Shown here piece by piece: positions 6,799 to 39,638 of a stretch of DNA of 64,000 nucleotides (position 1 is the first letter of the stretch; each line of letters begins with the position of its first letter). Location: assembly GCA_023131055.1 (NCBI GenBank), contig JAGMAB010000001.1, forward strand, positions 1,486-65,485, given 5' to 3'. The position numbers and the translations under genes were made by a program. The DNA comes from Candidatus Parcubacteria bacterium (GTDB taxonomy: Bacteria; Patescibacteriota; Minisyncoccia; Minisyncoccales; JAGMAB01). Under the pieces are notes generated by a model. The model saw nothing but the letters and a program-made list of their open reading frames with translations, ran no database searches and was not told the origin of the DNA.

Positions 6799-7511
6799 AT
6801 CCAGAGCCAATCATTAAATTAGAAAATGTCTGGAAGATTTATCAGTTGGGAAAGACAGAATTGGTCGCGCTAAAAGGATTAAGCCTGGAAATTAATCCAG
6901 GCGCTTTTGTGGCAGTTATGGGAGCTTCCGGGTCAGGGAAATCCACTCTTTTGAATATGATTGGGTGTTTAGATGTTCCGACAAAAGGAAAAGTTTATTT
7001 GAAAGGAAAAGATATTGCAAAAATGACGGAAAGTGAACTTGCCCAGTTTAGGGGAAAAGTATTGGGCTTTGTTTTTCAGGAGTTTAATTTGATTTCTCAT
7101 ATTAACTGTTTAGAAAATGTGATGTTTCCTATGATTTTTCAAGGTGTCCCGCCTCTAAAAAGAAAAGAAAAAGCGCAAGAAATTTTAAAAATGGTTGGCT
7201 TGGAAAATAGAATGGTTCACCAGCCAATGGAACTTTCCGGCGGCGAAAGGCAAAGAGTGGCGCTGGCAAGGGCATTTGCCAATAATCCGGAAGTGATTAT
7301 AGCTGATGAACCTACCGGAAATCTTGATTCAACCACCGGAAAAATGATAATGGAATTATTAAAAGATTTTCATATAAAACAAGGTAAGACAATGATTATT
7401 GTTACTCATGATCCGAATATCGCAAATTACGCCGAAGAAATAGTAAATATTAAAGACGGACAAATAGTTAAGAATCATTTAACTATGAAGAAAGTTTTAT
7501 GGAGCAAATAG
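6795..7511 (+). CDS. ABC transporter ATP-binding protein (MacB/LolD type)
   Basis: Walker A GASGSGKST, signature LSGGERQR, Walker B IIADEPTGNLD. 4-nt overlap with the upstream gene. Confidence 0.9.
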   Translation: MNPEPIIKLENVWKIYQLGKTELVALKGLSLEINPGAFVAVMGASGSGKSTLLNMIGCLDVPTKGKVYLKGKDIAKMTESELAQFRGKVLGFVFQEFNLISHINCLENVMFPMIFQGVPPLKRKEKAQEILKMVGLENRMVHQPMELSGGERQRVALARAFANNPEVIIADEPTGNLDSTTGKMIMELLKDFHIKQGKTMIIVTHDPNIANYAEEIVNIKDGQIVKNHLTMKKVLWSK

Positions 7512-8728
7512 AAGAATACTTTAAAATCGCGTTAAGAAATATACGAACCAGACGATTAAGAAGTTTATTAACTGTTTTAGGAATTATTATTGGCGTGTTT
7601 TTGATAATTTCTTTGCTTTCTTTAAGCGAAGGATTAAAAACAACAATTAACCAGCAATTACAGTCAATGGGCGGAGAAATGGTTATGGTAATGCCCGGAG
7701 GCGAAGAAGATATTTTTACCAGTATGCTCTTTGGCGGCGAAAAACTGCAAAAACAAGATATTGAAGCAATTAAAAAAGCAAAAGGCGTAGATAAAGTTTT
7801 AGGATTTTCTTATACCGGGACAGTAGCCAGATATAAAGACGAATCAAAACAAATCGCTATGTGCGGTTACGACCCCTGGAAAGAAAGTTTAGATGTTTTG
7901 AGTATTTTTCAGGGTTGGAGTTTGTCTGAAGGAAGATGGCCAAGCAAGGGAAATCAGATTTTAATCGGCCAATATATAGCTAATGAAATTTTTTCAAAAA
8001 AGATAAAAGCCGGTTCAGAAATGGTAATAAAAGGAAAAAAGTTTGAGGTGGCGGGAATATTAAATTCCTTGGGAAATAAGCAGGATGACAGCATGATTTA
8101 TATGGATATGAAGGTATATCAGAATTTAACCGGAGAAAAACAAGGGACTGCCGCATACGCGATAGTTAAACTTGAACAAGGAGCAGACGAAAATGTGGTA
8201 AAAACAGCGATTGAAGACAGTCTTGAAAAGACAAGAAAAAGAAGAGCCGGGACAGATGTTGCTGATTTTTCCGTTATTACCTCAGAAAAAATGGGAGAGA
8301 TGGTGGATACTATTTTAGGCATAATTCAGGTTGTTATTATTGGATTTGCCAGCATTGCCATTGTCGTGGGCGGTATTGGAATTACAAATAGTATGTTCAC
8401 TTCGGTCAGGGAAAGAACTAAAGAAATAGGAATTATGAAAGCGATAGGAGCCAAAAATTCAGCAATTCTTGCAATCTTTTTAATTGAATCAGGAATAGTG
8501 GGGATTTTTGGAGGCGTAGGCGGAGTATTATTTGGCAGTATTCTTGCTAAAGGAATTGATTATTATGGCCAGATTAATCCAACATTTTATTTTACAACAA
8601 CTATTTCTCCCTGGATGATTATTTTCGCTTTAGTTTTTTCTTTTTCTATAGGATGTTTAGCGGGATTTTTTCCTGCCAGGTCGGCGGCTAAACTCAAACC
8701 GGTAGAAGCATTAAGAAAATACGAGTAA
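7499..8728 (+). CDS. ABC transporter permease, MacB/FtsX-like
   Basis: N-terminal TM, large periplasmic domain, then a C-terminal three-TM FtsX-type domain (ERTKEIGIMKAIGA). Confidence 0.85.
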   Translation: MEQIEEYFKIALRNIRTRRLRSLLTVLGIIIGVFLIISLLSLSEGLKTTINQQLQSMGGEMVMVMPGGEEDIFTSMLFGGEKLQKQDIEAIKKAKGVDKVLGFSYTGTVARYKDESKQIAMCGYDPWKESLDVLSIFQGWSLSEGRWPSKGNQILIGQYIANEIFSKKIKAGSEMVIKGKKFEVAGILNSLGNKQDDSMIYMDMKVYQNLTGEKQGTAAYAIVKLEQGADENVVKTAIEDSLEKTRKRRAGTDVADFSVITSEKMGEMVDTILGIIQVVIIGFASIAIVVGGIGITNSMFTSVRERTKEIGIMKAIGAKNSAILAIFLIESGIVGIFGGVGGVLFGSILAKGIDYYGQINPTFYFTTTISPWMIIFALVFSFSIGCLAGFFPARSAAKLKPVEALRKYE

Positions 8729-18186: not shown

Positions 18187-18350
18187 TTTTTTTCTTTTCA
18201 CCTCCTTATTTACTTTTTTAAAGTATAGCATTATCACAAAATTTATCAATAGCTCTCATAATTAATTTTTAACCTTTATTTTAGCGTTCTGGGGAAAACC
18301 TGTGGAAAAAACCTTGTTTTAATCGGGATTTTAACCAAGTTTTATTTTAG

Positions 18351-18434
18351 TTGACCGGGTGTTTGAAATGGGGTTAAATAGGCATAGGTGGGGAATTGTG
18401 GAAAACTATGGGATAACTGCCTAAAACTGTGGAA
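18351..18434 (+). promoter_or_regulatory. dcw-cluster promoter (TTGACC-17-TTAAAT) with phased MraZ-box-like repeats
   Basis: GTGGGG (18388), GTGGAA (18398) and ATGGGA (18408) at 10-nt spacing, plus GTGGAA (18429). TGTGGAAAACTATG occurs twice. Confidence 0.5.
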
Positions 18435-18438
18435 AACT

Positions 18439-18870
18439 ATGCTTATTGGTGAATACTCATATACTATAGATGAAAAAAAACGATTAGCCATTCCTTCAAA
18501 GTTTAGGCTGTGTTTAGGTAAGAAAGCGGTAATCACCAAAGGATTGGATAATTGTCTTTTTCTTTATCCAATGAAAGAATGGGAAAAATTATCTGAAAAA
18601 TTAAGCAAGCTTCCTTTGTCTCAAGCCGACGCGCGGGGATTTGCGCGAATTATGCTTATCGGCGCAATGGATGTAAATTTAGACAACTTGGGAAGAATTT
18701 TAATTCCTGATTATTTAAAAAAATATGCCGGTTTAAACAAAAAAGTGGTTATTGCCGGAGTTCTTAATAGATTAGAAGTTTGGGATGAGAAAAAATGGCA
18801 GGAATACAAACAAAAAACAGAAGCTGGAATAGGAGATATTGCGGAACGATTAGGCGAACTCGGCGTTTAA
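18439..18870 (+). CDS. mraZ: transcriptional regulator MraZ
   Basis: MLIGEYSYTIDEKKRLAIPSKFR... shows the duplicated SpoVT/AbrB-like MraZ pattern. Precedes rsmH. Confidence 0.9.
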   Translation: MLIGEYSYTIDEKKRLAIPSKFRLCLGKKAVITKGLDNCLFLYPMKEWEKLSEKLSKLPLSQADARGFARIMLIGAMDVNLDNLGRILIPDYLKKYAGLNKKVVIAGVLNRLEVWDEKKWQEYKQKTEAGIGDIAERLGELGV

Positions 18871-27313: not shown

Positions 27314-29983
27314 TTACTCTTCGTCTTGATATCCTTTTTCTAAATTGCGGAATAATACCGTGCGGTCGTCAAAATATAATTCTGTTTTTCCAATAGGACC
27401 GTTGCGGTGTTTCGCCACGATAATATCAGCGATATTTTTTCTTGAACTGTTTTGCCGATAACGGTCTTCGCGATGAATAAACAACACTACATCCGCGTCC
27501 TGTTCCAAAGAATTATGAACAATAACATCATTGGCAATAAAATTATGAGCACCTTCTACTGTAGCATCATAAACCTCTTGCATTCCTAAGGGTTTTATTG
27601 AAACAATTTTGTCCCAAAAAATATCTGAATCAGCTAAATTACGAATAGTAGAATTTTCTTCTAATGCTAAACAAAGCCGAAGCATTCTTTCTCGGCTAAT
27701 TCCATGCTTAAAAAGCGTGCTTCCGCAGTAGGACATATCAAGCCGTTCAGCCACTTCACGCCAGCCAATTCCTACTTCTTGTTTAACTGGTTCAATAACA
27801 ATTTTCCAAGCTATTTTAGGAATTATATCTACATTAGTATTAGTAGTAATTTTTTCTAATGAAGCGATAAGAGATGGAATAATCTTTTTTCTTTTTCCAT
27901 TAATTCCAACTTTATTAAGGAATTTTAATTGTTCATTCGCTCCCTCAACATAAACATGATACATTGTTCTGTATCCTTTTTTTGATTTAATCCCCCGCAG
28001 AGAGCTTTGAATGTCTAATCTAAGGAGCAAATGTTGAACCTGTTCAGCCAAGACCTCGCTTGAACTGGAATAATAAATATTTCCTGTTGGCTTCCTTGCT
28101 TTTAGATATTTCCAACTTAAATTTCCATCAGTTGCCCAAAGGTGCCGCAGAAAAAGAGATATTTTATTTTTATCACATTGAAAAACTGCTTGAGGAATTT
28201 GTTTTTGCCAGGAACGAACACGTTTAATCCCAAGTTTTTTAAACCAATTAGTAATAGGATGATATTTTCCGCGAGCAAGTTGATAAGGGCTGGTAAGATA
28301 AATATGTTCCCAATTTTTTTGCTTTACTATTTTGCCGGTTATATTAAATAATTCTTTGGCTGCTTTTTTTACGGTTTGGATATTCTCTTTTTCGCCGTTA
28401 GTATAATGAAACGGTTGATTAGGAAGAATACAACCATCTCCTAAAAGATGAGCAAGTAAAATAAGTTCGTTTTCCGAAAGAAGGTTTAAAGATTTTTTGA
28501 TTTTAATTTTTCTTGGAAGAGCAATAAAATCATTAACTTTTAACTCATCTAATCTTCTCCAGCCATCTAATTTGAAAAAGGGATGATTGGCGCTTGCCTT
28601 AATTTTTCGTCCGCTTCTCGTTTTTAATTCAAAAACCATTTTTTTACCCGAAGGAAAAACTTTTATCATTTTATGTGATTTTAATTTGTAGGCATCTTCA
28701 ATACTTAAAATTTCAACAGGTGTTTGATTTTTTCTTTCTGCCAGTTCTTTGATTGGAATTCTTTCACCAGTATCAGTTTTTATAATGAGCGTATCACCGG
28801 TTAAGCATCCGCTTTCGCGAAGGTCGGACAACCGCGGGATTTGCGGAGAACGCTGTTCAACAGCCCTGGATAATTGAGACAAAGCTAAAACCGGAACATT
28901 AAGCTCTCTTGCCAAACCTTTAAGCGAACGGGAAATCTCGCTCATTTGCTGAACCATATTTATCCTAAAATCCCTTGATTCCATTAACTGAAGATAATCA
29001 ACGATAATCAGTCCTAATCCTTTATTTGCCTGTAATCGTCTTGACATTGCCTTCATTTGCAAAACATTTGCCGAAACAGCGTCATCTATGTAAATCGGCG
29101 CCTCGGATAAAACCCCCAGGGCTTGCTGAATTCTGGAAAAATCATTATCATCTCCGGAATCAGAAAGCCGTCCGGTTCTTAAACGCCACAAATCAACATT
29201 TGCCGTGCTGGCAATCAACCTGTCAACTATTTGGTCTCTTGACATTTCCAAACTGAATATACCTACCGGTTCTTTTTGATTTATGGCAATGTGAGCCGCA
29301 ATATTAAGCGCTAATGTGGATTTTCCCAGCGAAGGCCTGGATGCCAAAATTAACAAATCAGATTTCTGCAAGCCGGCAAGGATATTATCCAAACCGATAA
29401 AGCCTGTGGCTAAACCCCGTATATTCTCCTTATGTTTGGATAACCTGTCAATTCTTTCAAAAGCGTCTTCCAAAGTTGCTTTTACCGGCACAAAATTCTG
29501 GGTTAAACTTTTTTGCGCAATGCTGAATATTTTTTTCTCTGCCTCGTCTAAAAGAATATCAGTATCTTCGGTTTCATTATAGCCCAAAACACCGATTTCA
29601 TGGCTCACGCTAATCAAATCCCTTAAAATCCTTTTTTGCTGGACAATTTTGGCATAACTGAAAACATTGCTGGCAGTTGGAACTGAATTTATCAGTTCGG
29701 TTAAATAACTATTTCCGCCAATTTCTTCAAGCTGCGTTTTTTCCTTAAGCCGATTAGAAAGAGATAAAAGGTCAATTGGTTCTCCTTTTTCAAACAAATC
29801 CAAACTGCATTGGTAAATGTCCTGGTGCGATTTATTATAAAAATCGCGCGGTTTCAAAAAATCAGCCACTTTTACCACAGCGTTTTTGTCTAAAAGCAAA
29901 CAGCCAAGCAAACATTGCTCCGCTTCAATGTTTTGCGGAGGCAGCTTGTTGGGCAGTTCCGTGTTTGAAGAATCATTTGTCAT
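27314..29983 (-). CDS. dnaB: replicative DNA helicase DnaB, interrupted by an intein
   Basis: PPQNIEAEQCLLG N-domain, Walker A SRPSLGKST, IIVDYLQLM, and RESG|C...HN|SLEQDADVV junctions. Start taken at MTNDSS (29983). The ORF extends to 30019. Confidence 0.9.
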   Translation of the reverse strand: MTNDSSNTELPNKLPPQNIEAEQCLLGCLLLDKNAVVKVADFLKPRDFYNKSHQDIYQCSLDLFEKGEPIDLLSLSNRLKEKTQLEEIGGNSYLTELINSVPTASNVFSYAKIVQQKRILRDLISVSHEIGVLGYNETEDTDILLDEAEKKIFSIAQKSLTQNFVPVKATLEDAFERIDRLSKHKENIRGLATGFIGLDNILAGLQKSDLLILASRPSLGKSTLALNIAAHIAINQKEPVGIFSLEMSRDQIVDRLIASTANVDLWRLRTGRLSDSGDDNDFSRIQQALGVLSEAPIYIDDAVSANVLQMKAMSRRLQANKGLGLIIVDYLQLMESRDFRINMVQQMSEISRSLKGLARELNVPVLALSQLSRAVEQRSPQIPRLSDLRESGCLTGDTLIIKTDTGERIPIKELAERKNQTPVEILSIEDAYKLKSHKMIKVFPSGKKMVFELKTRSGRKIKASANHPFFKLDGWRRLDELKVNDFIALPRKIKIKKSLNLLSENELILLAHLLGDGCILPNQPFHYTNGEKENIQTVKKAAKELFNITGKIVKQKNWEHIYLTSPYQLARGKYHPITNWFKKLGIKRVRSWQKQIPQAVFQCDKNKISLFLRHLWATDGNLSWKYLKARKPTGNIYYSSSSEVLAEQVQHLLLRLDIQSSLRGIKSKKGYRTMYHVYVEGANEQLKFLNKVGINGKRKKIIPSLIASLEKITTNTNVDIIPKIAWKIVIEPVKQEVGIGWREVAERLDMSYCGSTLFKHGISRERMLRLCLALEENSTIRNLADSDIFWDKIVSIKPLGMQEVYDATVEGAHNFIANDVIVHNSLEQDADVVLFIHREDRYRQNSSRKNIADIIVAKHRNGPIGKTELYFDDRTVLFRNLEKGYQDEE
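27512..28807 (-). mobile_element. 432-aa DnaB intein with LAGLIDADG homing-endonuclease domain
   Basis: Begins at Cys (CLTGDTLI, codon 28807-28805) and ends VIVHN (Asn codon 27514-27512), followed by Ser+1. LAGLIDADG-like blocks LLAHLLGDGC and LRHLWATDGN. Confidence 0.85.
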
Positions 29984-30002
29984 CAAGTATAATATATCAA
30001 AT

Positions 30003-31145
30003 ATGGCAAAAAAACTCAAGGTTGGTCTAATCTCTTTTCATTCTTTTTTTCAGCCCGGAGGAGTTAAAAAACATATTCTGGGTCTGCGCAAAGAATTTAA
30101 AAAAATAGGGGTTGATACAAAAATTATCGCGCCGAGAAGAAAAAAAACAGAAAACTATGGCAAAGATGTTATTTTGCTTGGCACTTCTTTTGCCATGCCT
30201 TTTTCCGGCAGCCAGGCAGATTTTTGCATAAATTTTAACCCTATTTCTCTTAAAAGAACTTTAGAAAAAGAAAAGTTTGATGTTTTGCATTTTCATAATT
30301 TCGGCTTTCCTTCCGCTTTACAAGTTTTGCAAATGTCTGATGCTCTAAACATTCTCACTTTCCACGCTAACATTAAAGGAAGCAAGTTTTTGAAAAACTT
30401 TCCTGAAATTATTTATCTTTTTCAAAAAATCGCTCAATGGAAAATAGACGGAGTTATCGGCGTGGCGCAATTAAATTTAGAATACTTTAAGAATTTCAAA
30501 AAACCTAAAGCGATAATTCCAAATGGAATTGACCTGGAAGAATTTAATCCTAATGCTCCAAAAATTGAAAAATTCAATGATGGAAAAATCAATATCTTGT
30601 TTGTTGGACGGATTGAAGAAAGAAAAGGCTTAATTTATTTGTTAAAAGCATACAAAATTTTGCAAAAAAAATTCTCCAACTTACGGCTTATTATTATTGG
30701 AGACGGCGACTTAAAAAAAGATTGTGAATTATATGTTAAAGAGCAAAAACTTAAACAAGTTTTTTTTGAGGGACAAATTTCCGGGAAAAAACTTGTTTCT
30801 TATTTTACTACCTGCGATATTTTTGTCAGCCCTGCTATTTTTGGCGAAAGTTTTGGCATTGTCTTGTTAGAAGCAATGGCTTGCGCCAAACCAATAGTAT
30901 GCTTTAGCAATCTTGGCTATAAACAACTTTTACAGAGAACAAAAGGTGAAAAATTTTTAGTAAAACCGCGCGACTATAATGGTTTAGCTAACAAAATCGC
31001 AATTCTGGTTAAAGACAAAAAATTAAGGAAGGAAATGGGCAAATGGGGAAGAAAAGAAGCAGAAAATTATTCCTGGAATAAAATCGCCAAAAAAATCTTA
31101 GATTTTTATCAATTATGCAAACAATCTAAACAGAAATTTTCTTGA
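30003..31145 (+). CDS. glycosyltransferase family 4 (GT-B)
   Basis: Start at ATG 30003 ([14 protein letters not shown]...). Has the E-x7-E region [12 protein letters not shown]. Confidence 0.8.
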
Positions 31146-35929: not shown

Positions 35930-36000
35930 TCCGGGGTCGTCTAACGGTAGGACGGTTGGTTTTGATCCAATTAATCTTCGTTCGAATCGAAGCCCCGGAA
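35930..36000 (+). tRNA. tRNA-Gln (anticodon TTG)
   Basis: Acceptor TCCGGGG/CCCCGGA, anticodon stem GTTGG/CCAAT with loop TTTTGAT, T-arm CTTCG-TTCGAAT-CGAAG. Confidence 0.9.
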
Positions 36001-36145
36001 CAATTGTAAAAAAGCGTGAATTTGTATCGCTTTACGGTCATAATTCACGGTTTTTTATTGCATTTTTCATCGCAAAAAAAATCCGCAAATAGAAATCCGC
36101 AAACAGAACGTTGAAAAAAGTCCTGAAAAGAGGTAATGTGGGAAA

Positions 36146-37096
36146 ATGGGCAAACATGAAAGAAAATCAATTGAAGAAGCAGAAAAAATTATTGTAAAAA
36201 TTTTAAGTTCTAAAACTCTTAATGGTTTTGATAAAAGAAATCATTGGTTTAATCATGCTTTTTCTATAGCAAAAAGAATCAAAAAAGATTTCCCAAAAAT
36301 TACATTGGCTCGCCATCTAGGTAATAGCTATGATAACACAGGAGATATAATGATTATTTTTAATGGTAAAAAATTCTTTATTGAAATAAAGATGAGTGAT
36401 ACAAAATCAGGTATTGGAACTAAAGCTAATATTAGCCAAGATGCCCTTACAGAGAATTATCTTTTTACAAGAAATATAAAAAGTTGGAGTAAATTTCGTC
36501 AGGAAAAAAATCATGATAAGTGGGTTAATGATTTTTTGAATCAATTTACTAATTATCCACAGAATATTTTAAAAATTACTAATCCAGCAACGCAGAAGGA
36601 AGAAAAAGCAAGGTATTTAAGAAAATTAGCAAAAAAAAGAAATAAAAAAGCCAAGAGCATTCTTGACGATATCCAAAAAAAAGATAAAAAAGAAAAAATT
36701 GAATATTTAACCTATCTAAGCAGTCAAAAACAACAAAAGAAAATGATTAAAAGGTTTTTTATTTTGATTACATTAGGAATTCACAGAAAAGAAGAATTAG
36801 AAAATTTAATAAAGAAAGATGATTTTTTTCAAAAACTTAAAAACTTCTTTGTATATTACAGCAATTTTAATAAAGGTAAAATTGTTATCAGAAAAGAAGA
36901 TGCTGGAAAAAGAATTGAACAAATATTGAAAAAACATTCTGATTTTAAAATTATTTTTCCAGTAAAAGTAAGCCATTGTAAAATAGTTGGTGTAAAAGGC
37001 AAGAATTCTAAACAGTTATTACAAATAGTTTTTCACTGGAAAAATATTGCTCAAGGCATTAAAACTCCGTGTCTTAATATTTTTGACTTAGCTTAA
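36146..37096 (+). CDS. putative type II restriction endonuclease (PD-(D/E)XK-like)
   Basis: 316 aa with no recognisable family, but GDIMIIFNGKKFFIEIKMS fits D...ExK. Convergent with the methyltransferase gene, with overlapping stops. Confidence 0.45.
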   Translation: MGKHERKSIEEAEKIIVKILSSKTLNGFDKRNHWFNHAFSIAKRIKKDFPKITLARHLGNSYDNTGDIMIIFNGKKFFIEIKMSDTKSGIGTKANISQDALTENYLFTRNIKSWSKFRQEKNHDKWVNDFLNQFTNYPQNILKITNPATQKEEKARYLRKLAKKRNKKAKSILDDIQKKDKKEKIEYLTYLSSQKQQKKMIKRFFILITLGIHRKEELENLIKKDDFFQKLKNFFVYYSNFNKGKIVIRKEDAGKRIEQILKKHSDFKIIFPVKVSHCKIVGVKGKNSKQLLQIVFHWKNIAQGIKTPCLNIFDLA

Positions 37097-38931
37097 TTTA
37101 TATTAATCGGAAATAGTTTTCCCAACTCTGTCTTGGAAATTTGAGTATTTCCTGTGATATTGGATACGAAATTTAATTTTTCTTTTGAGGATAGTTGTTT
37201 AGCAACATCCCAAACAGTTAAATTATTTTTTAATGGATTATAAGCAAAATCCATTTTTATTTGGCTTTTTTTATCGGGAGGGAATATTACATTAACATGA
37301 TTTTCGGCAATAAACTTCATTCCGGAAGGGATAATAGCTGATTTTAATCTTGCCGACTTAACTGTTCCCGTGATTCTATTTGTTACGATTGCAGGTCCGA
37401 CATTAAAATTATTAGTCCTAACATACTGAGGTTTATCTTTTCTTGTAATTGGTATTTTTAACCCATCTAGGGTTATATTGTGCGCCCATATTAAAGAGAT
37501 GGCGCCTTTTGGGTTATGTGTAAGAATATCTCTATTTTGGTTCCACACCAATCTCCCTGTTTTAACTTCAAAGTTTAAATCATGTAAAGTCACTTTGCCC
37601 TTGAAAGCATTTTTCAGGTAGTTTGTATTTTCGCTAAAGATTAAAATACCATTTTTCTTAAATAAATAATCTCCTTTATTTTTACCTTTTTTAAGGATTA
37701 ACAACATTATTGATTGCTGGGCTCCATGAAATAATTTAGGATCTTTGATAACTTGCAAGTATTCAATATTAGAATTCTCAACAATAAACTTTCTTACTTT
37801 TGAGAAATAAGCTCCATTATTCATAGATGGAGGAACTACATACGCAAGGTACCCGCCTTTTTTAAGTAAATTTATTCCTTGGTGAATAAATAAACTAAAG
37901 ATATTTACACGACCATTTATTATATCGCCGAATTTCTGTCTTAATGTTTTTGATAGTGTAAATTCATAATAAGGCGGATTTCCAATCACAAAATCATATT
38001 TTCCATATTCTTTATTGAAAAGAGTGTTAGTAGTTTTTATGTTTGCCGTCGGAATTAATTCTTTAGCTATATCTACTAATTTTTTATCTATATCCCATGC
38101 CTCTAATCTGGGATTCTTAAAATATTCTTTCGCTGTAATTAAAAATTCCCCTGTGCCGCAAGCCGGATCTAAAACTCGTGGATTTTTAACAGTATTTGGT
38201 AATTTATTAAGCAATATTTTTCTTATAGACTTGGGTGTAAAATATTGACCGAGAGATTTTCTGTGCCCGATATCCGTTTCTCTCATATATTTAATAGTAG
38301 CTTCAGTAAATTCCTTGCTATCTTGGATTATATCTTGTAGTTCTTTGAAATTTCTAATTACACTAATGACTTTCCCTTGAATAATTAAATCTTTTGTAAA
38401 AATTGGCTTTAGGTTTGGATTGGCTGGTTGTAATCTAAATCTACTCTTTTCTTTGTAAATTTTCTTTAAGGTTACCTCGTTGTCGTTTATTAAGGCAACA
38501 ACTGTTTCGCCATTTTCTGCTGTTGGTTGTTTTCTAATTATTACAGTATCACCGTCAAAAATTCCTTCATCAATCATACTGTTTCCTTGAACCCTTAAAG
38601 CGTAATGTTTCCCTGATTTAGATAACTGATTTTTAGGCACTTCAATAGTTTCTGTATCTTCAATAGCTTCAATCGGCTGTCCGGCTGCAATAGTTCCTAA
38701 TATAGATATTTTTACTAAATCTGAAGATTTCTTTTTTTTATTTATTTCAATAACTCTTGATTGTGTTTTTAGATAACCTTTTTCTCTTAACGCTTCTATG
38801 TGTTGATGAATAGTTGATACCGAAGACAATCTAAAATGCCTCTTTATTTCTTCCAAAGAGGGAGCATAAGTATTTTCTTTAATATACTTAGTAATAAAAT
38901 CTAATATTTGTTTTTGTCTTTTTGTTAGCAT
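37093..38931 (-). CDS. LexA repressor (wHTH + S24 autopeptidase) fused to a gamma-class N6-adenine DNA methyltransferase
   Basis: Residues 1-205: LexA wHTH, AAG cleavage site (A83-G84), GNSM (S118), TLKK (K156). Residues 206-612: LDPACGTGEFL (motif I), GNPPY (motif IV), and a long target-recognition domain. Confidence 0.8.
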   Translation of the reverse strand: MLTKRQKQILDFITKYIKENTYAPSLEEIKRHFRLSSVSTIHQHIEALREKGYLKTQSRVIEINKKKKSSDLVKISILGTIAAGQPIEAIEDTETIEVPKNQLSKSGKHYALRVQGNSMIDEGIFDGDTVIIRKQPTAENGETVVALINDNEVTLKKIYKEKSRFRLQPANPNLKPIFTKDLIIQGKVISVIRNFKELQDIIQDSKEFTEATIKYMRETDIGHRKSLGQYFTPKSIRKILLNKLPNTVKNPRVLDPACGTGEFLITAKEYFKNPRLEAWDIDKKLVDIAKELIPTANIKTTNTLFNKEYGKYDFVIGNPPYYEFTLSKTLRQKFGDIINGRVNIFSLFIHQGINLLKKGGYLAYVVPPSMNNGAYFSKVRKFIVENSNIEYLQVIKDPKLFHGAQQSIMLLILKKGKNKGDYLFKKNGILIFSENTNYLKNAFKGKVTLHDLNFEVKTGRLVWNQNRDILTHNPKGAISLIWAHNITLDGLKIPITRKDKPQYVRTNNFNVGPAIVTNRITGTVKSARLKSAIIPSGMKFIAENHVNVIFPPDKKSQIKMDFAYNPLKNNLTVWDVAKQLSSKEKLNFVSNITGNTQISKTELGKLFPININ

Positions 38932-38935
38932 AGGT

Positions 38936-38967
38936 TTGACAAGGTTTTTACTCTTGTTATAATTATA
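38936..38967. promoter_or_regulatory. interdigitated divergent promoters
   Basis: Plus strand: TTGACA (38936-41), 16-nt spacer, TATAAT (38958-63). Minus strand: extended -10 TGCTATAAT (38970-38962) facing the LexA-methylase gene. The -10 hexamers overlap. Confidence 0.45.
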
Positions 38968-39020
38968 GCATACCGAAAAAGAACCGAAAATGCTGTCAAC
39001 CTGTGGAAAACTTTTTAACC

Positions 39021-39057
39021 AAAAAAAACCGCCTCGCTTGCAGCGCGGCGGTTTTTT
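39021..39057. terminator. bidirectional GC-rich terminator hairpin
   Basis: A-run, then CCGCCTCGC-TTGCA-GCGCGGCGG, then T-run. Lies between the plus-strand promoter at 38936 and the CYTH gene. Confidence 0.6.
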
Positions 39058-39071
39058 GGTAAAATAGAAAT

Positions 39072-39638
39072 ATGAATGTTGAAGTGGAAATAAAAGTTAA
39101 AATAGATAGTTTTGAAGAAGTGAAAAAGAATTTGCTTGACGCCGGCAAATTAGTAAAAACAATAAAACAAATTGATGAATATTATATTCCTTGTCATAGG
39201 GATTTTTTTGCTAATAAACCTCATCCTGTAGAATGGTTGAGAATAAGAACTAATCCTGATAAAGTAGTTTTTGAATATGATAAGTCCATAAATAAAAAAT
39301 CTGACGGCGAGCAGGAATGCGCCAAAGAATATGAAACAGAAATTTCTCAACCTAATGAATTTAGAAAAATTTTAGAATTTTTGGATTTCAAAAAAATAAT
39401 GACAGTTGATAAACAAAGAGAATACTGGAATTGTGGAGATTTTGAAGTTTGCTTGGACAATGTTAAAGATTTAGGATTTTTCATTGAAGTAGAGGCAAAA
39501 GGGGATTTTGAAAATACAGAAAAGGCGAAAAAAGGATGTATGGATTTTTTAGATAAACTTGGAATTGAAAATTGGCAAGAAAACCATATCAAAAAAGGGT
39601 ATCCTGTTCTACTTTTAGAAAAAAATTTGGTAAAATGA
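39072..39638 (+). CDS. CYTH-domain protein (CyaB-like class IV adenylyl cyclase / triphosphate tunnel metalloenzyme)
   Basis: N-terminal ExExK signature (MNVEVEIKVKI) and size and charge pattern of the CYTH fold. Confidence 0.75.
   Translation: MNVEVEIKVKIDSFEEVKKNLLDAGKLVKTIKQIDEYYIPCHRDFFANKPHPVEWLRIRTNPDKVVFEYDKSINKKSDGEQECAKEYETEISQPNEFRKILEFLDFKKIMTVDKQREYWNCGDFEVCLDNVKDLGFFIEVEAKGDFENTEKAKKGCMDFLDKLGIENWQENHIKKGYPVLLLEKNLVK

Follow-up and report, generated by a model that had tools for sequence, protein, structure and literature searches.

Restriction-modification (R-M) systems must balance the methylase and the nuclease or kill their host, and several devices that keep this balance are known: controller (C) proteins, methylases that bear a helix-turn-helix (HTH), and, in Type I systems, ClpXP proteolysis after DNA damage. 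In the accounts given by PMC3978073 and PMC6100179, DNA methyltransferases (MTases) of the M.SsoII type bind their own promoter region and control the expression of their R-M system. Type II restriction enzymes that attack their own genome induce the SOS response (PMC3874152), and it is established that damage induces restriction alleviation in Type I systems, by a proteolytic route (PMC12707154). Here we analyze a stretch of 64,000 nucleotides from a Candidatus Parcubacteria bacterium (contig JAGMAB010000001.1; "the window" from here on), in which a single open reading frame (ORF) joins a LexA repressor to an N6-adenine DNA MTase, next to a putative restriction endonuclease. If a methylase were built into a self-cleaving SOS sensor, the damage signal itself would reset methylase synthesis, a balancing device that would be new and very direct.

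A LexA module joined to a DNA methyltransferase

The fusion gene and its parts are the following, with positions counted from the first letter of the window.

37093 to 38931, minus strand: LexA-MTase fusion gene, R-M modification subunit, 612 aa (from its domains and more than 120 full-length homologue clusters)
38737 to 38931, minus strand: LexA winged-HTH DNA-binding domain, aa 1-65 (Pfam LexA_DNA_bind; LexA structure alignment); inside it the recognition helix, about aa 37-46 (SVSTIHQHIE), whose residues track the operator half-site
38680 to 38685, minus strand: codons of the predicted Ala83-Gly84 self-cleavage site (aligned with E. coli A84-G85; invariant in 40 orthologues)
38365 to 38703, minus strand: Peptidase S24 catalytic and dimerisation domain, aa 77-189 (Pfam; conservation)
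38578 to 38580 and 38464 to 38466, minus strand: Ser118 and Lys156 of the S24 dyad, both invariant
37093 to 38316, minus strand: gamma-class N6-adenine DNA MTase, aa 206-612 (Pfam N6_Mtase/Eco57I; PADLOC MTase_II; PDB matches)
38149 to 38169 and 37969 to 37980, minus strand: MTase motif I and NPPY, followed by the C-terminal target-recognition region

The original prediction, made from the letters of the sequence, had proposed one uninterrupted frame encoding a full LexA followed by a gamma-class methylase, and the domain searches bear it out. The ORF starts with ATG and runs through its 612 codons with no interruption. In its N-terminal half Pfam finds LexA_DNA_bind (PF01726; aa 2-57, 64.5 bits) and Peptidase_S24 (PF00717; aa 77-189, 105.8 bits), and the 203-position NCBIfam lexA equivalog model TIGR00498, for which the curated cut-off is 110.95 bits, scores 197.2 bits over aa 2-195. 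In a PDB search, the LexA of T. maritima (3k2z) aligns end to end with this half, with an E-value of 8e-35. The proposed catalytic residues, said to follow E. coli numbering almost exactly, do so in alignments to 1jhh and 7b5g: A83-G84 corresponds to A84-G85 of E. coli LexA, S118 to S119, and K156 to K156. As judged by sequence, the N-terminal 195 aa are a complete LexA, beyond a bare HTH.

The C-terminal half matches N6_Mtase (aa 224-455, 78.4 bits) and Eco57I (aa 280-401, 68.9 bits) in Pfam, the MTase_II models in PADLOC, and, among solved structures in the PDB, CamA, M.BseCI and M.TaqI, with E-values between 1e-10 and 1e-12. Motif I (LDPACGTGEFL, aa 254-264, with DPACGTG at aa 255-261) lies N-terminal of motif IV, NPPY (aa 318-321), which is the gamma-class order. 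There is no Pfam match to TaqI_C in the fusion, and identity to M.TaqI, M.BseCI and CamA is low. These matches identify the half as a gamma-class N6-adenine DNA MTase at the level of family and motif. Neither Pfam nor PADLOC detects a WYL domain in the fusion module. As had been claimed, the 64-kb window holds no second lexA by tblastn.

How widespread is this architecture? Among 5.8 billion proteins, over 120 clusters formed at 90% identity share it at full length, and they derive from independent assemblies of NCBI, JGI, ENA and Logan; they are 610-639 aa long, 66-95% identical, and carry the labels "transcriptional repressor LexA", "hypothetical protein" or "adenine-specific DNA-methyltransferase". 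When one genome of each species is scanned, about 24 loci have the full fusion. Clusters with a named organism come from Candidatus Nealsonbacteria, Portnoybacteria or the Patescibacteria group, and the named loci are all from Patescibacteria (Nealson-, Portnoy-, Buchanan-, Magasanik- and Doudnabacteria, plus a complete 562-kb Parcubacteria genome). The LexA-gamma MTase fusion is apparently confined to Patescibacteria.

In an alignment of 40 homologues, the residues A83, G84, S118, K156, D255-P256, G259, G261 and N318-P-P-Y321 are invariant, together with many positions of the C-terminal recognition region. Mean pairwise identity is 0.80 in the S24 domain, 0.75 in the MTase core, 0.70 in the target-recognition region and 0.61 in the DNA-binding domain. 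That S24 is the best-conserved part of the protein is unexpected for a mere spacer or dimerisation handle. One complete genome (AP024682.1; locus L015, 6001-7843) carries a version with a frameshifted DNA-binding domain and a degenerate operator, in which the ORF for the S24-MTase part (547 aa) is intact. The frameshift is either a decaying regulator or a sequencing error; the loss of DNA-binding domain and operator with retention of S24-MTase fits an accessory regulator better than an essential one.

A phage or prophage origin was considered and is ruled out: the full fusion is absent from the viral contig collection, where only the MTase half occurs (36 loci), and no annotated phage record covers at least 80% of the protein. 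The fusion is, by this absence, not a prophage repressor. On their own account, the IMG/VR loci L086-L101 show stand-alone homologues of the MTase half (30-54% identity) on viral contigs, including GVMAG giant-virus bins.

The LexA module is found joined to much more than gamma-class methylases. We searched the module alone (aa 1-200) against 1.84 billion representatives at 50% identity and observe that 43 of its 50 closest relatives are long, at 270-890 aa, and that LexA is N-terminal in nearly all of these; LexAs of about 200 aa that stand alone prevail only lower in the list. All 55 long relatives that were scanned with Pfam have both LexA_DNA_bind and Peptidase_S24. Their C-terminal partners are N6_N4_Mtase (30), Eco57I/N6_Mtase (7/5), the Dam-like D12 (5) and C5 (3), with a few truncated or unassigned. 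These 55 divergent fusions show no change in the Gly of the cleavage site, in the Ser or in the Lys, and the Ala of the cleavage site is kept in at least 90%. The Ser/Lys dyad, on whose conservation the original prediction depended, is thereby kept both here and as S118/K156 in the 40 orthologues. The domain assignments present LexA-methylase fusion as a general design in Patescibacteria, spanning all DNA-MTase classes (beta, gamma, D12 and C5), and this recurrence with every class argues for a strong selective advantage.

Several arrangements illustrate the range. In loci L018 (3338-5761) and L010 (99-2241), a LexA-D12 (Dam-like) methylase with a convergent 264-aa partner stands directly upstream of the LexA-gamma MTase system. 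L045 encodes a LexA-beta-gamma double methylase of 1129 aa. L038 has a split form, in which a 204-aa lexA ends in a stop codon and a 5-nt gap precedes a 401-aa MTase, and in L041 a LexA-like gene is divergent from the methylase. The closest stand-alone LexA (213 aa, 61% identical to the LexA module of the window) is encoded 15 nt upstream of a DpnI-family methyl-directed restriction gene (L081, 1125-2551; also L082), the two forming an apparent operon. The 264-aa protein beside LexA-D12, which begins M..RRAMTTEAARRVKLAGHEAEKEF... and has no known domain, is presumably a new family of restriction endonuclease.

The putative partner endonuclease and the predicted operator

A second gene converges on the fusion gene in the window.

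36146 to 37096, plus strand: putative cognate restriction endonuclease of 316 aa, whose gene converges on that of the MTase and shares 4 nt with it at the 3' end
36344 to 36346, 36383 to 36385 and 36389 to 36391, plus strand: its predicted catalytic residues D67, E80 and K82, invariant in homologues

The original prediction had assumed an R-M context without having a restriction gene to point to, and this neighbour supplies the candidate. It is kept convergent and adjacent in about 21 of the fusion loci, at 50-78% identity by tblastn. More distant homologues (33-46% identity) adjoin stand-alone MTases in Aminicenantes, Chloroflexi, Acidobacteriota, Zixibacteria, and the archaea Nitrososphaeria and Acidilobaceae. 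Among the homologues D67, E80 and K82 are invariant, which is the PD-(D/E)XK signature. At the sequence level the protein has no match in Pfam, NCBIfam, PADLOC or the PDB. Its AlphaFold2 model is confident (predicted local distance difference test, pLDDT, 86.9; predicted template-modelling score, pTM, 0.82), and the top PDB match of the model in Foldseek is R.HinP1I, with probability 0.99 and a similarity that is weak overall (E-value 1.2e-3, TM 0.33/0.40), followed by Hjc resolvases and other PD-(D/E)XK nucleases. The predicted fold and the signature residues point to this neighbour as the restriction endonuclease of the LexA-MTase system.

Stand-alone homologues of the MTase half (fusion aa ~205-611; about 400 aa, 41-59% identical) occur in very diverse bacteria and archaea, among them Aminicenantes, Chloroflexi, Zixibacteria, Brachyspira, Sulfolobales, Desulfurococcales and Halobacteriales. 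Their neighbours in cultured Brachyspira and Thermogladius gave no informative Pfam family. Five loci (L030, L034, L038, L041 and L045; for example 7256-8218 on the minus strand of L045) have the same MTase family with an unrelated convergent partner of about 310-320 aa that carries the motif SSRSKADLFE and has no match in Pfam or PADLOC; this protein may take the place of the usual endonuclease beside these methylases.

Around the module, synteny is lost from locus to locus: the CYTH gene next to it in the window never recurs, and dnaX recurs once. Divergent upstream genes are CYTH in the window and elsewhere GIY-YIG, a trypsin-like peptidase or proteins with no known family, and for this heterogeneity they were rejected as conserved partners. 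A tRNA-Gln(ttg) gene (35930-36001, plus strand) lies directly 5' of the endonuclease gene, and tRNA genes flank the module also in L005, L017 and L018, which suggests a tRNA-linked insertion of the R-M island. We conclude that the module is a mobile Type II R-M system whose modification (M) subunit carries LexA.

How is the restriction (R) gene itself expressed? In five loci (L004, L012, L015, L021 and L025) a C-protein-like ORF, which ends in a typical controller HTH (...QSYISKIERGERRIDI...), lies directly 5' of the endonuclease gene. The window has no C gene upstream of R, where the tRNA-Gln and a 145-nt spacer are found. The start of R is about 2.8 kb away from the M promoter. No terminator is predicted at the convergent M/R junction, and on the M strand the first is reached about 430 nt into R; for want of a terminator at the junction, M transcripts may run antisense into R. 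As to the recognition site, palindrome avoidance in the window and the pooled loci finds GGCC, GATC, TCGA, CTAG, TGCA and ACGT all depleted, and TTTAAA as the most depleted 6-mer, with none assignable to the system.

The promoter of the fusion gene has two elements that bear directly on its control.

38972 to 38989, minus strand: predicted LexA operator TTTCGGT-N4-TTTCGGT, a direct repeat of 11-bp period overlapping the -35/spacer of the fusion promoter
38962 to 38970, minus strand: extended -10 element TGcTATAAT of the fusion promoter, the best forward promoter; TG-n-TATAAT is kept in most loci

The direct repeat ends 1 nt before the extended -10, and is the single exact match in the 64-kb window, in which near-matches stay at chance level. 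Using as criterion a 9-mer repeat with at least 8/9 identity, an 11-period repeat is found in 20 of 26 LexA-fusion promoters, as compared with 3.7% of shuffles, and the period is always 11. The two half-sites vary jointly from locus to locus (TTTCGGT, TTTCGAT, TTTCGCT, TTTCGGG, TTTCTAT, GTTCT and TATCGG), and such joint change is the signature of a site that is read by a dimer. The recognition helix changes with the half-site: HQH goes with CGGT, HHH with CGAT, HKH with CGCT and HEH with CGGG. This pairing holds across methylase partners and the stand-alone lexA (L005 and L081, L012 and L045, L020 and the D12 fusion of L018). We assign the repeat with high confidence as the predicted LexA operator of the fusion gene.

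Where fusions coexist, each seems to keep its own operator. The adjacent fusions of L018 differ in half-site and each operator is confined to its own promoter; the same is observed for L012 and L038, which belong to one metagenome-assembled genome (MAG). The same type of LexA and operator cassette stands 5' of the D12, beta+gamma, split and lexA-DpnI versions, the last of these (L081) with ATGTTCGGT twice. In about 250 kb of related loci, a sequence with no SOS-type genes, the operator matches fall at fusion promoters only. Upstream of the endonuclease gene, at 36079-36103 on the plus strand, AAATCCGCAAA occurs twice with a 14-bp period, just 5' of the -35 of its putative promoter; the reverse complement, TTTGCGGAT, loosely resembles a LexA half-site. 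As an endonuclease operator this repeat was left out of the model, since it is not kept in other loci.

A proposed damage-inducible methylase and its rivals

From the domain identities, the conservation of the cleavage and catalytic residues, the R-M gene pair and the co-varying promoter operator, we infer an autorepressed, DNA-damage-inducible R-M methylase. The protein would dimerise through the S24 domain, and its winged-HTH domains would bind the TTTCGGT direct repeat over its own -35/spacer, so that the methylase represses its own synthesis and is held at a set point. When RecA filaments form on single-stranded DNA after damage, including the breaks of self-restriction, Ser118 and Lys156 would cut between Ala83 and Gly84. 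This cut would sever the DNA-binding domain from the S24-MTase body, which should stay catalytically intact, and the derepressed promoter would give more methylase; stronger transcription of M may also extend, in antisense, into the endonuclease gene. Overall, damage would tip the M:R ratio towards protection, a built-in restriction alleviation. By analogy, a LexA-coupled methylase would give a Type II system feedback equivalent to the alleviation known in Type I.

We consider this model, taken as a whole, somewhat probable. Our confidence is high for the fusion, for its identity as an R-M methylase and for the operator assignment, moderate for the cleavage competence that the conserved residues predict, and lower for the physiological purpose, in which damage would lead to more methylase.

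Several observations weigh against it. The protein comes from an uncultured organism, and the mechanism rests on computation. The full-length AlphaFold2 model of the fusion is poor (pLDDT 53.6, from a 40-sequence alignment), and the geometry of the cleavage loop and of the S24-MTase junction is unusable. A search of the endonuclease promoter revealed no operator, so any effect on R would be indirect. Since LexAs of this clade that stand alone share the operator cassette, an operator at a gene's own promoter does not tell local control from global SOS repression. A window of 64 kb is too short to exclude further operators in the genome, and recA did not turn up in the window or among 0.9 Mb of related loci, which is a small sample. 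More methylase upon damage could also aid an infecting phage, which makes the selective logic uncertain.

Is the protein then simply the SOS repressor of its host, acting on recA, uvr and polymerase genes across the genome, with a methylase captured as a passenger or as an SOS-induced product? It passes the TIGR00498 equivalog cut-off and bears the NCBI name "transcriptional repressor LexA", the window has no other lexA, and the operator type is the one used by same-clade stand-alone LexAs; moreover, PMC7739468 groups a Patescibacteria SOS study with the cases in which LexA reads a direct-repeat motif, such motifs being known in other phyla. Yet the half-site differs between close relatives (CGGT, CGAT, CGCT, CGGG and CTAT), which is hard to reconcile with a regulon of many sites, and there can be two or three LexA fusions with different half-sites on one contig or MAG (L018, L010, and L012 with L038). 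The restriction of operators to fusion promoters in the sampled 250 kb, the mobility of a module whose flanks have no synteny, and the locus (L015) with a frameshifted DNA-binding domain, a decayed operator and an intact S24-MTase also speak against a global repressor, which we regard as unlikely. No SOS genes are found in the window. A different way of denying the damage response is to read the LexA module as an autorepressor and dimerisation module alone, comparable to the HTH of M.SsoII, that is not cleaved in vivo and has no coupling to damage. MTases with N-terminal regulatory DNA-binding regions are established, as PMC3978073 and PMC6100179 describe for M.SsoII, and the operator overlaps the promoter. 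Against this, the Ala-Gly site and the Ser/Lys dyad are conserved in the 40 orthologues and in the 55 divergent fusions, and S24 is the most conserved region of the protein. Relatives of LexA and CI that do not cleave usually lose the cleavage or dyad residues, and we find this possibility quite improbable.

Cleavage could instead inactivate or destabilise the methylase, so that damage or a phage tips the balance to restriction or suicide, in the manner of abortive infection. In E. coli, the fragments of LexA are degraded by ClpXP and Lon after cleavage, and the N-terminal fragment of the fusion would end in ...TIAA, like the ...VAA of E. coli; the lexA-DpnI operon indicates that the same LexA clade is able to control a restriction enzyme directly, and damage-responsive induction of defence is a known theme, treated for BrxR in PMC9122589. 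A cut at A83-G84, however, leaves the MTase domain untouched, derepression of the promoter would restore the full-length protein, and the S24-MTase product gives no evidence of a degradation signal. We hold this outcome to be very unlikely. As for the fusion itself being an artefact, in which lexA and the methylase gene were merged by an error of sequencing or assembly, a truly split version does exist (L038), but one unbroken ORF, in which a linker of about 20 aa is conserved, recurs in over 120 independent clusters and at about 24 genome loci. This excludes the chimera or frameshift at the junction against which the original prediction had cautioned, and we give the artefact practically no credence.

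The autorepressed, damage-inducible methylase admits a bolder extension. A clade of LexA paralogues in Patescibacteria may have taken over the role of R-M controller, each paralogue covalently fused or linked in an operon to the methylase or nuclease of one system and reading its own co-evolving operator of 11-bp period, and all of them sharing the RecA-single-stranded DNA signal, so that damage would unhook all methylases at once and cause a genome-wide burst of protective methylation. We put this forward as a tentative idea, possible and on the whole doubtful. If true, restriction alleviation would here run through a LexA-based circuit that has no described counterpart in other lineages.

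The design is found in organisms with tiny genomes, the Patescibacteria or Candidate Phyla Radiation (CPR). CPR proteins annotated "transcriptional repressor LexA" are often R-M methylases, which bears on reconstructions of SOS regulons and on R-M censuses. The LexA variants, with recognition helices that co-vary with operator bases, form a natural set for working out a specificity code, and a compact damage-inducible protein with its operator parts could serve synthetic biology.

Further elements of the locus and comparison with known systems

Beyond the operator and the extended -10, the intergenic region has three more features.

38936 to 38963, plus strand: opposite-strand promoter of sigma-70 type with perfect consensus, TTGACA-16-TATAAT with TG, 12/12 (sequence scan)
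39002 to 39010, minus strand: DnaA-box-like 9-mer TTTTCCACA (consensus TTWTCCACA), just upstream of the operator
39028 to 39051, strand not assigned: G+C-rich hairpin flanked by A and T runs, like a bidirectional terminator, between the regulatory region and the divergent CYTH gene

The -10 of the reverse promoter overlaps the forward -10, and its -35 is a few nt from the ATG of the fusion. A reverse promoter scoring at least 10/12 is present in 13 of 21 loci, as compared with 5.5% of shuffles. It is directed through the operator towards the hairpin and the CYTH gene (39072-39638) in the window, and towards another gene in each locus.

The DnaA-box-like 9-mer (TTATCCACA or TTTTCCACA, in either orientation) occurs in 17 of the 21 fusion promoters, as compared with a background frequency of 0.009 per 150 nt; its positions are those of the window and the equivalents in L002-L022, L081 and L083. 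Some loci have a second, inverted copy beside the ATG. Since the 9-mer stays constant as the half-sites change, it points to a conserved host factor, perhaps DnaA, rather than to LexA. In the window as a whole TTTTCCACA is enriched, with 9 copies observed and 2.07 expected. Three of them, on the minus strand, are at the promoter and start of mraZ (18388-18870), at 18301-18309, 18397-18405 and 18428-18436; mraZ heads a mraZ-mraW-PBP division cluster. Elsewhere in the window, the gene for the replicative helicase DnaB (27314-30019, minus strand; 901 aa in total) is split by an intein with a LAGLIDADG homing-endonuclease domain.

Has this family been described before? The original prediction had raised the possibility that the architecture is both common and already characterised. 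The first half stands, as we have a large Patescibacteria-wide family that takes in all MTase classes; for the second half we found no sign. In the full-text literature we found no description of LexA-MTase fusions or of LexA-controlled R-M systems, the word LexA is absent from a 2025 review of R-M biology of 270,000 characters, and databases annotate the fusions as plain LexA or as plain methylase.

Compared with the LexA of E. coli and T. maritima (TIGR00498; 1jhh, 3k2z), the fusion is alike in its winged HTH, Ala-Gly site, Ser/Lys dyad and, by sequence, S24 fold, and in having an operator at its own promoter. It is unlike them in being a 612-aa protein with a 400-aa C-terminal methylase, and not a stand-alone protein of about 200 aa; in having as operator a direct repeat of 11-bp period and not a palindrome, and a half-site that varies among close relatives; and in occurring as several paralogues per genome, each tied to a restriction system. 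The sequence covered, in which there are no SOS-type genes, gave no sign of a wider regulon. Compared with M.TaqI, M.BseCI and CamA, it shares the SAM-binding (S-adenosylmethionine) motif, NPPY and the gamma domain order, and differs by its N-terminal LexA module, its low identity and its lack of a Pfam TaqI_C match.

The methylases of the type of M.SsoII, M.Ecl18kI, M.EcoRII and M.MspI come near in concept, since one polypeptide both methylates DNA and has an N-terminal regulatory module with a site in its own promoter, binding to which is a prediction for the fusion. Those proteins, however, are C5-MTases with an HTH of about 70 aa, divergent M and R promoters, and no protease or signal sensing, whereas the fusion has a 195-aa LexA with a protease domain, an N6-adenine MTase and a convergent R gene, and the partners of LexA span all MTase classes. 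Type II C proteins are similar in that they are system-specific regulators whose operators set the timing and ratio of M and R and are insulated when systems coexist; unlike the fusion, they are XRE-type HTH proteins with a gene of their own, which as a rule shares a transcript with R, and no damage sensing is known for them.

A DNA-damage signal alters a defence system also in the case of BrxR/CapW (WYL; for BrxR see PMC9122589), of CapH/CapP and of Type I restriction alleviation (PMC12707154), and the likeness there is one of concept, as the fusion module has neither a WYL domain nor a metallopeptidase pair. Type I restriction alleviation proceeds by ClpXP proteolysis of HsdR and involves no LexA, whereas here the sensor and the methylase are one covalent chain. 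Methylases that regulate themselves, C proteins and defence regulators that respond to damage are each known already. What appears to be new is a complete, apparently self-cleaving SOS sensor joined covalently to R-M methylases of every class, together with a family of co-evolving direct-repeat operators, in Patescibacteria only.

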